DNA of 64,000 nucleotides from Escherichia coli (GCF_003334255.1 NZ_QOWU01000002.1); one strand, 5' to 3'. Counted from the first letter of the stretch, positions 1,981 through 54,285 are shown. The notes: a model not told the origin generated them from the sequence alone. Numbers and translations are program-made.

Positions 1981-3052
1981 TGTAAAGCGCCAAATCTGCC
2001 GATTTCAACCACTCACGATAGTGACTCATTTGTGGGTTCAGCGGCGCAACCCCCACACTAATCCGTAAAGTTACCTGTGGCGTATTCGGCAAACGTAATG
2101 TATTTAGCCCTTCATGCACCCGTAACATGGCGGTAATGGCGCTCTCAGCTGGCGTACCGGACATGATTACTGCAAACTCATCGCCGCCAAACCGACCAAT
2201 CACATCGCTACCGCGCAGGGTAATTTGTAACTGTCGGGTAAGCGCCACAATCGCTTCATCGCCCACATCATGGCCCCAGGTATCGTTGATGCTCTTGAAA
2301 TGGTCGATATCGATAATCAGTAACGTTGCATCGCGATTATGCCGCCGACAGTTATCAAATTCATTGCGTAACATAGTTTCCCAATGACGTCGGTTATACA
2401 CGCCCGTCATGCCGTCGCGGGTACTCATGACCTGCAACCTGCGTTTATGTTCCGCCAGTTTGGTTGCCGTCTGGTAGCTGACCCAGCCAAACAGCAGAGG
2501 ATAAATGACAATAATGGGAAGGGAGAGCCACCATTCCAGCGGCGCACTATTGAACGACACGGTAATGCCCGTCAGCTCGAGGGTGACAAGGCAGGAAACC
2601 ACCATCAACACCAGACCCGCGACAAACAGACGGGGGCCGCCTGCCCCCATCAAATTCAGACACATAATCATCAACATCGCGGTGGAAGGCAGCACGTTTA
2701 CGCCCATTACGCCTACCCACATTCCCGCTAATACTGCATCGGTTTTTAAGTTGTAAATTTCCCGGCTAAGCGGATCGACGGCCCTGCTCGCTATCTGCCA
2801 GGCTAAATGCGGCCAGACGAACGCCCAGCCGACCAACACCAGCCACCACCAGCCCGGCGGCGGGTGTGAAACCAGCGTTGAAGCAATCGGTAAGAACATG
2901 CCAGCCAGGCCAACCGCACGGGGTAGTCTGACGCGACGGGCGAAGCGCAGCCCGGACCGCTGATGTTCGTTTTGAGGAGTTAAAGGAGGTTCCTCCCCGT
3001 GCGCCGCCGCTTTTTTGAAAAAGTTTTCATCATTCATTATTTTTGGGAACAT
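1937..3052 (-). CDS. dgcC: diguanylate cyclase (GGDEF domain, membrane-anchored)
   Basis: 371 aa ORF with N-terminal TM segments and RFGGDEF motif; matches YaiC/AdrA. Confidence 0.9.
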   Translation of the reverse strand: MFPKIMNDENFFKKAAAHGEEPPLTPQNEHQRSGLRFARRVRLPRAVGLAGMFLPIASTLVSHPPPGWWWLVLVGWAFVWPHLAWQIASRAVDPLSREIYNLKTDAVLAGMWVGVMGVNVLPSTAMLMIMCLNLMGAGGPRLFVAGLVLMVVSCLVTLELTGITVSFNSAPLEWWLSLPIIVIYPLLFGWVSYQTATKLAEHKRRLQVMSTRDGMTGVYNRRHWETMLRNEFDNCRRHNRDATLLIIDIDHFKSINDTWGHDVGDEAIVALTRQLQITLRGSDVIGRFGGDEFAVIMSGTPAESAITAMLRVHEGLNTLRLPNTPQVTLRISVGVAPLNPQMSHYREWLKSADLALYKAKKAGRNRTEVAA

Positions 3053-3153
3053 TCAGAAACAATTTTCCCAAATTATAGAGACGGAGCTAAAGGCAGAAGT
3101 ATGATATTTCGGGTGAGCCATTTTCGTAGCTCACCCGTTAGCACTATCAGGTA

Positions 3154-45260: not shown

Positions 45261-46160
45261 ATGCTCTCTCGACATATCAATTATTTTCTTGCCGTGGCTG
45301 AACATGGCAGCTTCACCCGTGCCGCCAGTGCGTTGCACGTCTCCCAACCTGCGCTTTCCCAGCAGATTCGCCAGTTAGAGGAGAGTTTAGGCGTGCCGCT
45401 GTTTGACCGTAGCGGGCGAACGATTCGTCTCACTGATGCAGGAGAAGTCTGGCGACAGTACGCCAGCCGGGCGTTACAGGAACTGGGGGCGGGTAAACGG
45501 GCGATTCATGATGTTGCCGATCTGACGCGAGGATCGCTGCGTATCGCCGTCACCCCCACCTTTACGAGCTACTTTATCGGCCCCTTAATGGCGGATTTCT
45601 ATGCGCGCTATCCCAGCATCACGCTCCAGCTACAGGAAATGTCGCAGGAGAAAATCGAGGATATGCTTTGCCGCGACGAGTTGGACGTTGGGATTGCCTT
45701 CGCGCCTGTGCATTCGCCGGAGCTGGAGGCAATTCCTTTACTGACAGAAAGTTTAGCGTTAGTCGTGGCGCAACATCATCCGCTGGCCGTCCATGAACAG
45801 GTGGCGTTGAGTCGCTTGCATGATGAAAAACTGGTCCTGCTCAGCGCGGAATTTGCCACCAGAGAGCAAATTGACCACTACTGCGAGAAAGCGGGGCTAC
45901 ATCCACAGGTGGTCATTGAGGCGAACTCAATTAGCGCGGTTCTGGAGCTGATTCGCCGCACTTCCCTTTCCACATTGTTACCAGCAGCGATTGCCACACA
46001 ACATGACGGGCTTAAAGCTATTTCTCTTGCCCCGCCACTACTGGAGAGAACGGCGGTTTTGTTGCGGCGGAAAAATAGCTGGCAGACAGCCGCCGCGAAG
46101 GCATTTTTGCACATGGCGTTGGATAAATGCGCGGTTGTTGGCGGAAATGAATCACGGTAG
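45261..46160 (+). CDS. cynR: LysR-family regulator of the cyn operon
   Basis: [44 protein letters not shown]..., 299 aa, divergent from cynT. Confidence 0.9.
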
Positions 46161-46476
46161 CCGCTGACACAGGTCTGCGGCTGGAATTGCCTGATGCGCT
46201 ACGCTTATCAGGCCTACGAGTTCAGTGCTCTACGTAGGCCGGATAAGGCGTTCACGCCGCATCCGGCATAAACTACAGCTGGCAGACAGCCGCTGCGAAG
46301 GCATTTTTGCACATGGCGTTGGAGGAATGCGCGGTTGTTGGCGGGAATGAATCACGGTAGCCGCTGACACAGATCAGCGGCTGGAATTGCCTGATGCGCT
46401 ACGCTTATCAGGCCTACGAGTTCAGTGCTCTACGTAGGCCGGATAAGGCGTTCACGCCGCATCCGGCATAAACTAA
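46077..46476. repeat. tandem direct duplication, 2 x 200 bp (cynR 3' end plus REP pair)
   Basis: agctggcagacagccgc...atccggcataaacta occurs at 46077-46276 and again at 46277-46476 with a handful of substitutions. Confidence 0.85.
46277..46360 (+). pseudogene. duplicated cynR 3'-terminal fragment
   Basis: Second copy of the last ~84 bp of cynR including the ...gaatgaatcacggtag terminus, no upstream ORF. Confidence 0.5.
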
Positions 46477-46496
46477 GCTCGCTGTAACCCAGTCGT

Positions 46497-47780
46497 TCAA
46501 CGTTTGTAATCGATGGCTTCTGGCTGCTCCAGATATACGGTGGTTTGTGCCGGTTGTGTGCTGGCAATCACCTTGCCGCCACGTACCGAATAACGTACCG
46601 GAACCTGACGGCGCAGCGCATCAAACCCATTTTCAGCCGGCAGGATAATCAGGTTGGCGCTGTTTCCGGCGGCAATGCCGTAATCCTGCAAATTCAACGT
46701 CCTTGCGCTGTGGTGGGTGATTAAATTCAGGCCATCGTTAATCTGCCCGTAGCCCATCAACTGGCAAACATGCAGCCCCATATGCAGCACTTGCAGCATA
46801 TTCGCCGTTCCCAGCGGATACCACGGATCGAAGACATCATCGTGACCAAAGCAGACGTTAATGCCGGACTCCAGCATCTCTTTAACGCGCGTGATGCCGC
46901 GACGTTTTGGATACGTATCGAAACGTCCTTGCAGATGAATATTGACCAGCGGGTTGGCGACAAAGTTAATACCGGACATTTTCAGCAAGCGGAACAGGCG
47001 TGAGGTATACGCCCCGTTATAGGAGTGCATTGCCGTGGTGTGGCTGGCGGTGACTCGCGCGCCCATGCCTTCATGGTGCGCCAGGGCAGCAACGGTTTCG
47101 ACAAAGCGCGACTGCTCGTCATCGATCTCATCACAGTGAACGTCGATGAGACGGTCGTATTTTTGCGCCAGGGCGAAGGTTTTATGCAGCGACTCCACGC
47201 CGTATTCACGGGTAAATTCAAAATGCGGAATCGCCCCCACTACATCTGCCCCTAAGCGTAACGCCTCTTCCAGCAACGCTTCACCGTTGGGATACGACAA
47301 AATCCCTTCCTGAGGGAAGGCGACGATTTGCAGATCAATCCACGGCGCGACTTCCTGCTTCACTTCCAGCATTGCTTTCAGCGCAGTTAGCGTTGCATCC
47401 GAAACATCGACATGGGTACGCACATGCTGAATGCCGTTGGCAATCTGCCATTTCAGCGTTTGCCATGCGCGTTGTTTCACATCGTCATGGGTTAATAACG
47501 CTTTGCGCTCGGCCCAGCGTTCAATGCCTTCAAACAGCGTGCCGGACTGATTCCAGTTCGGTTGTCCGGCGGTTTGCGTGGTGTCCAGGTGAATATGTGG
47601 CTCCACAAACGGCGGTATAACTAAACCTTGTTCGGCATCCAGGCTGTTTTCAGTTATGGGCATCACGCCGGATTGCGCATCAATGGCGCTGATTTTTCCG
47701 TCCTGCAGATGAATCTGCCACAGCCCCTCTTCGCCTGGTAACCGGGCGTTAATAATTGTTTGTAAAGCGTTATTCGACAC
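46497..47780 (-). CDS. codA: cytosine deaminase, GTG start
   Basis: (V)[37 protein letters not shown]..., 427 aa; start overlaps the codB 3' end. Confidence 0.95.
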
Positions 47781-49029
47781 TGTTAGCCTCCACATGCGTC
47801 ATTGCTGCTGTCGTTTTACGATTCAAAATCGGGTTAAGGATCAGATAGCTCAGCGCGCCACCTAATACCGCGTTGACCGGAACAATTCCCGGTAACCAGT
47901 GGCCTGCAGCAATCCCCAAGGCGACCGCCAGAATCGCCACCCAATTGACACTCATCATACGCGTGGTCGCAAAGTGCTCATAGCGGCGACGGTTCATCAG
48001 ATAGTCGGCGATGATCACGCCACCCACTGGAGGAATAGCTGCCGAAAGGAAGGTCAACCAGCCGACAAAATTGTTATACAGCCATAATGCGCAGACCGTA
48101 CCGATAATACCGTTGATTACCGAAAGGGTTTTGCTCGACATCCCGGTAATGTTGGCGAAACCTAAACCCGACGCATAGAGTGCGTTATCGTTGGTGGTCC
48201 AGATATTCAGCCCCAGCACCACAATCGCAGGCAGCAGCAGGCCCTGAGCAATCATCACATCAGAGATATCCGCCATGCCCAGTGCCGCAGCGCCCGCTGC
48301 ACCGAAAATAAACATCAACGAGTTGCCGAGGAAAAAGGCCACCATCGCCACCAGCACCGCCAGTTTGGCATTGCGACCAAACCGGACAAAGTCAGCGGTG
48401 AGCGTACCCGCACTGATAAATGACCCCACAACCAGCGCCAGCGCGACATTGAAATCTAACGGTTGTGCGGGAACGACCGCTTTTAATGCGTCCAGGCCGC
48501 CCATGCCGTTAACAGCCAGCCACACGGAATAACCGCCCAGGCAGGCGATAGCCGGAACCGCAATCACCGAAAGAACCGTCAGCGCCGAAATGCCAAAAAA
48601 GACGGTGACGGTCATCAGTAAACCGGAAACGGCAATCAGCAAATTAATATCCAGCCCGGTTGCCTTACCCACCGGAATGGCAAACATCGCCACACCGACG
48701 CCAAACCAGCCAACCTGAGTTCCGCCCAGTAGCAGTGAAGGCAGCCATGAGCCTTTAACACCAAACGAGAAGCGAGCAAGAAGATGAGTGGTCAGGCCGG
48801 TTTTTGCGCCAATGTAACCGAGAAATGAAGTGTAAATACCGAGGAGAAGATTACCGATGAGAACTGCGAGGAAGAAATCATGATAGCTAAGACCGGTTCC
48901 GAGAGTGCCGCCGGTCCACATACTGGCGGAAAAGAAGGTTAATCCCAGCATGACGAACGTCAATGCCAATACCCCTTTCCGCGCCGACTGCGGGACTGGC
49001 CCCTGGCTAAAGTTGTTATCTTGCGACAC
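47770..49029 (-). CDS. codB: cytosine permease
   Basis: 419 aa [33 protein letters not shown]... Confidence 0.95.
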
Positions 49030-49181
49030 GAAATTCCCCCTTTTTGCTGTTTGAAACCCAAAAAATCCGCCGCATTCTATTCATCTGAAGATAAAAAGCA
49101 ATCGTTTTCGTGGGGAAATATATTTTTTATATGAATGAGTGCAAAAAGGTGGGGGAAAAATTATCGGTGTAAAAACAGTGG

Positions 49182-49350
49182 GTAGGCCTGATAAGACGCG
49201 TCAGCGTCGCATCAGGCATCTGAGCATGGTGTCGGATGCGACGCGAGCGCCTTATCCGACCTACGGTTCAGGTCCGTAGGCATGATAAAACGCGTCAGCG
49301 TCGCATCAGGCATCGGCACACAGTGCCGGATGCACCGCGCGACGCATCCG
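49182..49350. repeat. REP/BIME cluster between codB and prpE
   Basis: Alternating gtaggcctgataagacgcg... and ...cggatgcgacgcgagcgccttatccgacctac units. Confidence 0.8.
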
Positions 49351-49358
49351 ACAATAAC

Positions 49359-53974: not shown

Positions 53975-54262
53975 GATTGTTGTCGGATGCGACGCTATGC
54001 GTCTTATCCGACCTACAGTTCAGTTCACCCCGTAGGCCTGATAAGTCGCGTCAGCGGCGCATCAGGCATCGGTTGTCGGATGCGACGCTATGCGTCTTAT
54101 CCGACCTACAGTTCAGTGCACCCCGTAGGCCTGATAAGTCACGTCAGCGGCGCATCAGGCATCGGTTGTCGGATGCGACGCCATCCGTCTTATCCGACCT
54201 ACAGTTCAGTGCACCTCGTAGGCCTGATAAGTCGCGTCAGCGACGCATCAGGCATCGGCTGT
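53975..54262. repeat. tandem REP/BIME array, 3 units of about 93 bp, inside the prpBCDE operon
   Basis: gtcggatgcgacgctatgcgtcttatccgacctacagttcag...gtaggcctgataagtcgcgtcagcggcgcatcaggcatcggtt repeated with starts at 53982, 54075, 54168. Confidence 0.85.
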
Positions 54263-54285
54263 CGAATACAATCAACGGGCGTTTT

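Follow-up and report, generated by a model that had tools for sequence, protein, structure and literature searches.

A strain-variable 200-bp tandem repeat of the cynR 3' end and a BIME between cynR and codA in Escherichia coli

Between the convergent genes cynR and codA of Escherichia coli, a 200-bp segment that includes the end of cynR can be present more than once in succession. How did this tandem repeat arise, how does its copy number vary among strains, and does the extra unit do anything for the cell? We addressed these questions in a 64,000-nt stretch of E. coli DNA (hereafter the window, with positions counted from its first nucleotide), reading the same interval in 27 other genomes and counting diagnostic structures in 5426 complete E. 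coli genomes.

Tandem Repeats Finder placed an array at 46077-46479 (period 200, 2.0 copies, 96% matches, no indels, score 755), and a repeat search of the window matched 46077-46275 with 46277-46475 at 97% identity. Pairwise alignment of unit 1 (46077-46276, plus strand) and unit 2 (46277-46476, plus strand) yielded 193/200 identical positions. A sequence-only reading of the window had described two consecutive, nearly identical 200-bp units here, located between the convergent cynR and codBA, and both statements are borne out. The units form a true tandem duplication. The cynR coding sequence (299 aa plus stop), delimited by open reading frame and translation and annotated as cynR in MG1655 and other genomes, occupies 45261-46160 on the plus strand, and codA, at 46497-47780 on the minus strand, is convergent with it, its stop codon lying 20 nt past the end of unit 2.

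Each unit is composed of the final 84 nt of cynR, a hairpin with a stem of 9-10 bp and a REP pair, putatively z1/y, that is, a BIME. The earlier description of the unit as the last 84 bp of cynR followed by a REP pair agrees with the position of the cynR stop codon, TAG at 46158-46160, and with the recurrence of both REPs in the window; unit 1 opens exactly at the last 84 nt of the gene (46077-46160). In unit 1 these nucleotides are the functional cynR tail (the 'DK' allele), and in unit 2 they recur as a promoterless 84-nt 3' fragment with TAG at its end (46277-46360, plus strand; the 'EE' allele). The second copy had indeed been called a promoterless cynR tail, and translation together with PGAP calls elsewhere identifies it as an N-terminally truncated relic; in many genomes, the PGAP label of the equivalent stretch is that of an incomplete pseudogene with its N-terminus missing. 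A small ORF in unit 2 was considered and rejected: the sole in-frame ATG opens 15 codons and is without a ribosome-binding site. A non-REP hairpin, AGCCGCTGA...TCTGCGGCT, lies over the cynR stop codon at 46159-46182 on the plus strand, with one stem mismatch and a folding energy of -15.9 kcal/mol, and its copy in unit 2 (46359-46382, plus strand) has a perfect 10-bp stem and -17.2 kcal/mol.

The seven mismatches between unit 1 and unit 2 fall at columns 18, 48, 49, 69, 97, 100 and 200 of the alignment, four of them in the cynR coding tail, two in the non-REP hairpin and one at the final base of the unit. Across columns 101-199, the BIME half, the two units of the window do not differ. Therefore, the differences are a few point substitutions, as the sequence-only reading had it, but their supposed presence in the REP spacer was mistaken, since none lies in the REPs or in the spacer.

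The two REPs of a unit form an inverse pair with a 16-nt linker, GAGTTCAGTGCTCTAC. The first, GCCTGATGCGCTACGCTTATCAGGCCTAC, has CTAC at its end on this strand and occupies 46189-46217 in unit 1 and, by sequence match, 46389-46417 in unit 2 (both plus strand). The second, GTAGGCCGGATAAGGCGTTCACGCCGCATCCGGCA, has GTAG at its start and is located at 46234-46268 in unit 1 and, again by sequence match, at 46434-46468 in unit 2 (both plus strand). With up to three mismatches allowed, GCCTGATGCGCTACGCTTATCAGGCCTAC has 6 matches in the 64-kb window and GTAGGCCGGATAAGGCGTTCACGCCGCATCCGGCA has 8, against 0 expected in either case. Because both recur elsewhere in the window far above chance, they are genuine REPs; they are imperfect palindromes with a GTAG/CTAC foot, fold as stem-loops and recur at dispersed places. 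They are probably of the z1 and y types, respectively, and on that typing the pair, a z1+y with a short linker, would be an 'atypical' BIME. PMC3333891, from which the z1/y nomenclature comes, defines REPs as imperfect palindromes, 30-40 nt long, whose foot carries a conserved GTAG (CTAC in the opposite strand), and it describes BIME-1 as z1+y with a long L linker in single copy and atypical BIMEs as other combinations, often multi-copy. An Rfam scan of the array returned no curated RNA family; the only matches were sub-threshold ones to naRNA4, a REP-derived RNA, at the y-type REP of both units.

A false duplication created during assembly can be dismissed. Window positions 45851-48651 are the reverse complement of MG1655 355300-358100 with no differences; the repeat has the MG1655 coordinates 357475-357874, and a 451-nt stretch is identical there. 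The join between units is found in 1541 independently assembled complete genomes, and the units differ from each other at 7 positions. The repeat is in fact ordinary and has been noted before: codA-cynR is cited by Ton-Hoang et al. (2012), and the repeat is present in the K-12 reference. Our search of the literature on cynR repeats and BIME polymorphism found no further paper on the cynR-codA locus.

The origin of the duplication is recorded in its join. We read ten multi-unit alleles (K-12, G5, E189, EC-107, RM9088, A27, NRZ106056, PRO_A-1420, GPEC1366 and QA-1986 630), and the join AAACTAC|AGCTGGCAG is the same in 10/10. In the window it occupies 46270-46285 on the plus strand, with the break between 46276 and 46277. 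The left boundary in cynR reads AAAAAT|AGCTGG, the right boundary in most single-unit alleles reads AAACTAC|GCTCGC, and the duplicated segment is exactly AGCTGG...AAACTAC. Some single-unit right boundaries end in AAACTAA (ws5-3 and the contraction products described below), and the right end of K-12, AAACTAA|GCTCGC, is one substitution away from the C of the G5, E189 and RM9088 arrays. At the endpoints, in-register microhomology amounts to 0 nt. A GCT is common to both boundaries, 1 nt out of register and within an imperfect repeat of 12/19 in a by-eye alignment; a join aligned on this GCT would yield a period of 199 nt, not 200. RecA-independent slippage normally uses a few bases of microhomology, and a blunt join would be unusual for it, a point that weighs against the account favoured below. 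A microhomology-mediated (slipped-strand) tandem duplication was considered and is ruled against by the lack of in-register identity.

The sequence-only reading had called the duplication REP-mediated. REPs are indeed present in every unit, REP-REP exchange reportedly gives rise to large tandem duplications in Salmonella, and REP-level recombination seems to occur nearby, where related BIMEs flank cynRTSX on both sides and a single BIME takes the place of this block in B2 strains. However, the 200-bp duplication has no REP at either endpoint: the left one is in the cynR coding sequence, with no REP near it, and the right one falls 8 nt after the y REP has ended. The Salmonella duplications of Shyamala, Schneider and Ames (1990) reportedly join within REPs and span many kilobases, whereas the join studied here is outside the REPs and the duplication is 200 bp long. 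We judge it very improbable that REP-REP recombination made the tandem duplication.

An origin through TnpA-REP, the REP-associated tyrosine transposase or RAYT (yafM in K-12), would place the breaks outside the REPs. The enzyme would cut single-stranded DNA on either side of the BIME, in one case at a distance and inside cynR, and rejoin the ends; in the view of Ton-Hoang et al. (2012), a BIME unit would thereby be amplified together with a 'sequestered' cynR tail. Their paper (NAR 40:3596, PMC3333891) names codA-cynR as a BIME unit with a gene fragment and reports in vitro cleavage by TnpA-REP at a distance from the REP. Each unit of our array has an intact GTAG-bearing y REP, which TnpA-REP needs, and the other four tandem arrays of the window are all BIME arrays, which suggests that tandem amplification is general to BIMEs. 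The join is nevertheless of the wrong kind. PMC3333891 gives the central C|T dinucleotide as indispensable for cleavage in vitro, whereas the observed join, ...CTAC|AGCT..., reads C|A along the top strand and T|G along the bottom one. Had the closest C|T sites been used, AGC|T within cynR and ACGC|T beyond the BIME, the period would be 199 nt and the join ACTACGCTGG, neither of which is observed. An ancestor that would rescue the model, with the right end ACTACAGCTCGC that an in-register AGCT or C|T join calls for, had no match at >=99% in the 5426 genomes. Moreover, the later changes from two units to three and from two to one are fully covered by homologous exchange, with crossovers spread along the unit. 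A TnpA-REP origin is unlikely in our estimation. That the array is a natural TnpA-REP footprint, made of a BIME and a host gene fragment, and that its present copy-number changes depend on TnpA-REP and not on homologous recombination, we hold to be quite unlikely.

Because the same join is present in all ten alleles and unit 1 carries the 'DK' tail wherever that tail is intact, the comparison points to a single illegitimate duplication behind all arrays examined. The 'DK' tail ends in the derived C-terminus ALDKC (Asp-Lys), which was found in unit 1 of 8/10 multi-unit alleles, these being all the alleles with an intact unit 1 tail. The DK/EE site is at 46122-46127 in unit 1 and 46322-46327 in unit 2. 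Glu-Glu (ALEEC) is present in the relic copy and in most single-copy or BIME-less strains, and the unit 2 tails are ALEEC variants equal to real CynR tails of other lineages. The changed copy is the functional cynR tail, not the relic. The two-unit array is also found on divergent flanks, as in FT130, with 70 differences in 9 kb to the left and 23 in 2.7 kb to the right. For RM9088-type arrays of two 186-nt units, the single-origin view needs several later recombination or conversion events.

We next consider how many units E. coli strains carry. The 5426 complete genomes over-represent laboratory and clinical lineages, and the counts that follow are not population frequencies. The cynR 3' part was found in 4206 of them. 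A 39-nt cynR-codA spacer without a BIME is present in 1706 genomes (31%), the one-unit allele in 934 and the two-unit allele, the commonest of the BIME-bearing alleles, in about 1340. The unit-to-unit join, which marks two or more units, was counted in 1541 genomes (28%), and a longer query, running from the last part of unit 2 through unit 3 into the right flank and again diagnostic of two or more units, matched 1531. About 200 genomes carry three units (198 extra join places; 208 records for a query lying within a three-unit array). None of the 5426 genomes has more than two joins, i.e., there is no array above three units. In a further 986 of the 5426, cynRTSX is absent and the order lacA-BIME-codA is found instead. 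The allele classes add up to 4181 of the 4206 cynR-bearing genomes, and the rest includes IS621 insertions. The sequence-only reading had proposed a survey of E. coli genomes for copy-number variation, and this survey revealed a clear polymorphism of one to three units in addition to BIME-less and cyn-less alleles. Its description of the duplication as fixed does not hold, as genomes have 0, 1, 2 or 3 units and only 28% have two or more.

The alleles form a length series when the spacer is measured between the cynR and codA stop codons. In B7A the spacer is 39 nt and contains the hairpin only, without a BIME; in strains of this type a 10-bp-stem form of the same hairpin makes up the whole cynR-codA separation. 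Spacers of 120 nt (E500002), 132 nt (O157:H7 and GMF054) and 146 nt (VREC0761) contain one unit, some with small deletions. Two 200-nt units give 336 nt (K-12, G5, E189, EC-107), two 186-nt units, both missing 14 nt of the hairpin, give 308 nt (RM9088, A27), and three 200-nt units give 536 nt (NRZ106056, PRO_A-1420). In RM9088, with its 2 x 186-nt array, codA is annotated as a frameshifted pseudogene in the extracted interval 887-1360. IS621, an element of the IS110 family, is inserted in a unit 1 REP of two strains, the y REP in GPEC1366 and the z1 REP in QA-1986 630; IS621 targets REP sequences.

An exact search of 100,044 species-representative genomes with the 23-mer spanning the join found no match. 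This fits a polymorphism internal to E. coli and gives no date; the E. coli entry among these representatives is presumably the B2 type strain, which would be without cyn. Strains of group B2, such as Nissle, have no cynRTSX and show the lacA-BIME-codA arrangement, in agreement with Touchon et al. (2009).

How did copy number change once two units existed? The three-unit alleles are u1-u2-u2 in both alleles read fully and in seven sampled, where u1 and u2 denote the patterns of unit 1 and unit 2, and their middle unit combines the u2 pattern with the join base C at its end. This is the product expected from unequal exchange within columns 101-199. Four three-unit genomes are all on the common K-12-like haplotype (9-kb and 2.7-kb flanks), and the single flank SNP that they carry is also present in a two-unit genome. 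At window position ~41740, 4325 nt left of unit 1, K-12 shows a single A/T difference over 9 kb from five K-12-like genomes outside K-12, perhaps a substitution of the lac region that is private to K-12.

On K-12-type flanks, one-unit alleles have the patterns 1111112, 1111222 and 1112222 at the seven diagnostic columns, and each is a single u1-to-u2 switch in a different interval, for instance between columns 69 and 97 in 2011EL-1370-2 and between 49 and 69 in CT29. The three crossover intervals imply that homologous exchange contracted the array several times independently. The one-unit contraction product, constructed in silico as the reciprocal of the three-unit exchange, has matches of 100% over 360 nt in at least 24 genomes. 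Among these are the laboratory strain OV2, in which the 2-kb flank on either side equals that of the window, and AS19, a derivative of E. coli B; two units are present in the strains labelled BL21 and E. coli B. In an individual genome, a one-unit contraction could be an assembly collapse. A different one-unit pattern, 1222112 or 1222111 (ws5-3, OW1E2, VREC0761), is not a simple u1/u2 recombinant and probably resembles the pre-duplication allele; in its 1222112 form (ws5-3, OW1E2), the A of column 200 is present on this ancestral-looking single unit too.

The units of an array also evolve together. The BIME half (columns 101-199) is homogeneous within each array, save for one SNP in EC-107, and differs between arrays; in RM9088, for example, both units show two substitutions in the REPs and have lost the 14 nt of the hairpin. 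Identity within arrays combined with difference between them indicates concerted evolution.

Several features of the locus are shared with known repeat systems. As in other tandem BIME arrays (BIME-2 and atypical), inverse REP pairs are arranged head to tail in an intergenic region, and copy number varies among strains both here and, according to PMC3333891, in those arrays. However, ordinary BIME arrays have a period of 93-101 nt and contain REPs and linkers only, whereas the cynR-codA unit is 200 nt long and contains a coding tail and a non-REP hairpin, so that it falls outside the classical BIME array of REP, iREP and linkers with a unit of ~90-100 nt. The window holds four other tandem arrays, at 26624-26832, 28788-29029, 53979-54264 and 63743-64000, all pure BIME with a period of 93-101 nt and 2-3 copies; the last of them, which continues beyond the window, shares its z1 and y REP sequences exactly with the cynR-codA units. 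The RAYT capture model of Ton-Hoang et al. (2012) cites the same locus, but the join found here is off C|T and the later changes are of the homologous type. The repeat qualifies as a VNTR, with head-to-tail copies whose number (1, 2 or 3) differs among strains. Like bacterial VNTR/MLVA loci, in which unequal recombination or slippage alters the copy number, it has strain-variable tandem copies and homogenised units; unlike them, it has a narrow range of one to three units and a gene fragment in the unit. No paper using the cynR-codA repeat as a typing marker was found in the literature searched.

Related BIMEs also lie on either side of neighbouring genes. In the lacA-cynX spacer (42703-42804), lacA is followed by a z1 REP, which a similar 16-nt linker separates from a truncated y REP. 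The cynRTSX genes are thereby bracketed by two related BIMEs (42703-42804 and 46183-46496), and the Nissle extract (2993-3112) has exactly one, running from lacA to codA. It looks as if the cyn operon was lost or gained by recombination between BIMEs or by insertion into them. The codB-prpE spacer (49030-49358) is 330 nt long in the window and in the four three-unit genomes and 236-237 nt in FT130 and GDSC2BY4G, a difference that is probably one of BIME copy number.

We then asked what the extra unit contributes. Selection might keep it if it worked as an additional terminator or stabilised RNA, or if it insulated codBA and cynR, which converge, by limiting read-through and antisense interference. 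On either strand, each unit folds stably into a hairpin and REP stem-loops (z-scores -3.2 to -5.4), and the two-unit allele is the commonest of the BIME-bearing ones and occurs on divergent flanking haplotypes. However, a BIME-less spacer of 39 nt suffices for 31% of genomes, alleles with one, two and three units exist side by side in closely related backgrounds, and the array contains no canonical intrinsic terminator and no curated RNA family. Maintenance by selection seems to us unlikely. A promoter scan of the interval found no promoter-like site. Terminator-like sites were confined to the minus strand, where two weak hairpins overlap each other and straddle the left boundary of unit 1 (46067-46094). 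The minus-strand hairpin at 46067-46094 is on the codBA-sense strand, within the cynR coding sequence, and is followed by ATTTTT; its T-run is just outside the repeat and is not duplicated. Judged from its sequence, the extra unit most likely adds a second hairpin/REP stem-loop module and 200 nt of spacing between the convergent transcripts, and little else. Because 31% of genomes have the 39-nt spacer and alleles of one, two and three units occur in near-identical backgrounds, we infer that the extra copy is close to neutral.

Taken together, the repeat is probably a low-copy minisatellite that was created by one illegitimate join and then shaped by homologous recombination between its units, with an extra unit that does little. 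From the allele set, we propose that the ancestral spacer was ~39 nt long with the hairpin only, and that the addition of a BIME gave the one-unit spacers of 120-146 nt. A single, essentially blunt illegitimate event would then have produced the observed join of ...AAACTAC to AGCTGGCAG inside cynR. The outcome would have been a 200-bp duplication whose second unit begins with a dead cynR tail. Once two units existed, homologous recombination between them could account for the allele structures: unequal exchange in the 99-nt identical BIME half would produce three units (u1-u2-u2), unequal exchange or slippage would produce the one-unit recombinants, and gene conversion would keep the BIME halves of one array alike. 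Recombination with imported DNA may have put the array on other flanking haplotypes and altered the relic tail.

The cynR-codA repeat is of little import for biology at large. Within E. coli, it accounts for the PGAP pseudogenes annotated as 'hypothetical protein, missing N-terminus' between cynR and codA, and it serves as a warning that assemblies can collapse or expand this interval. Because the spacer measures 39, ~136, 336 or 536 nt, its length is also a cheap marker for separating E. coli lineages, and the repeat is a possible test locus for RecA-dependent versus RAYT-dependent change in BIME copy number. If the reading of the array as a TnpA-REP footprint were true, the locus would be a PCR-scorable in vivo reporter for an enzyme never observed active in cells.
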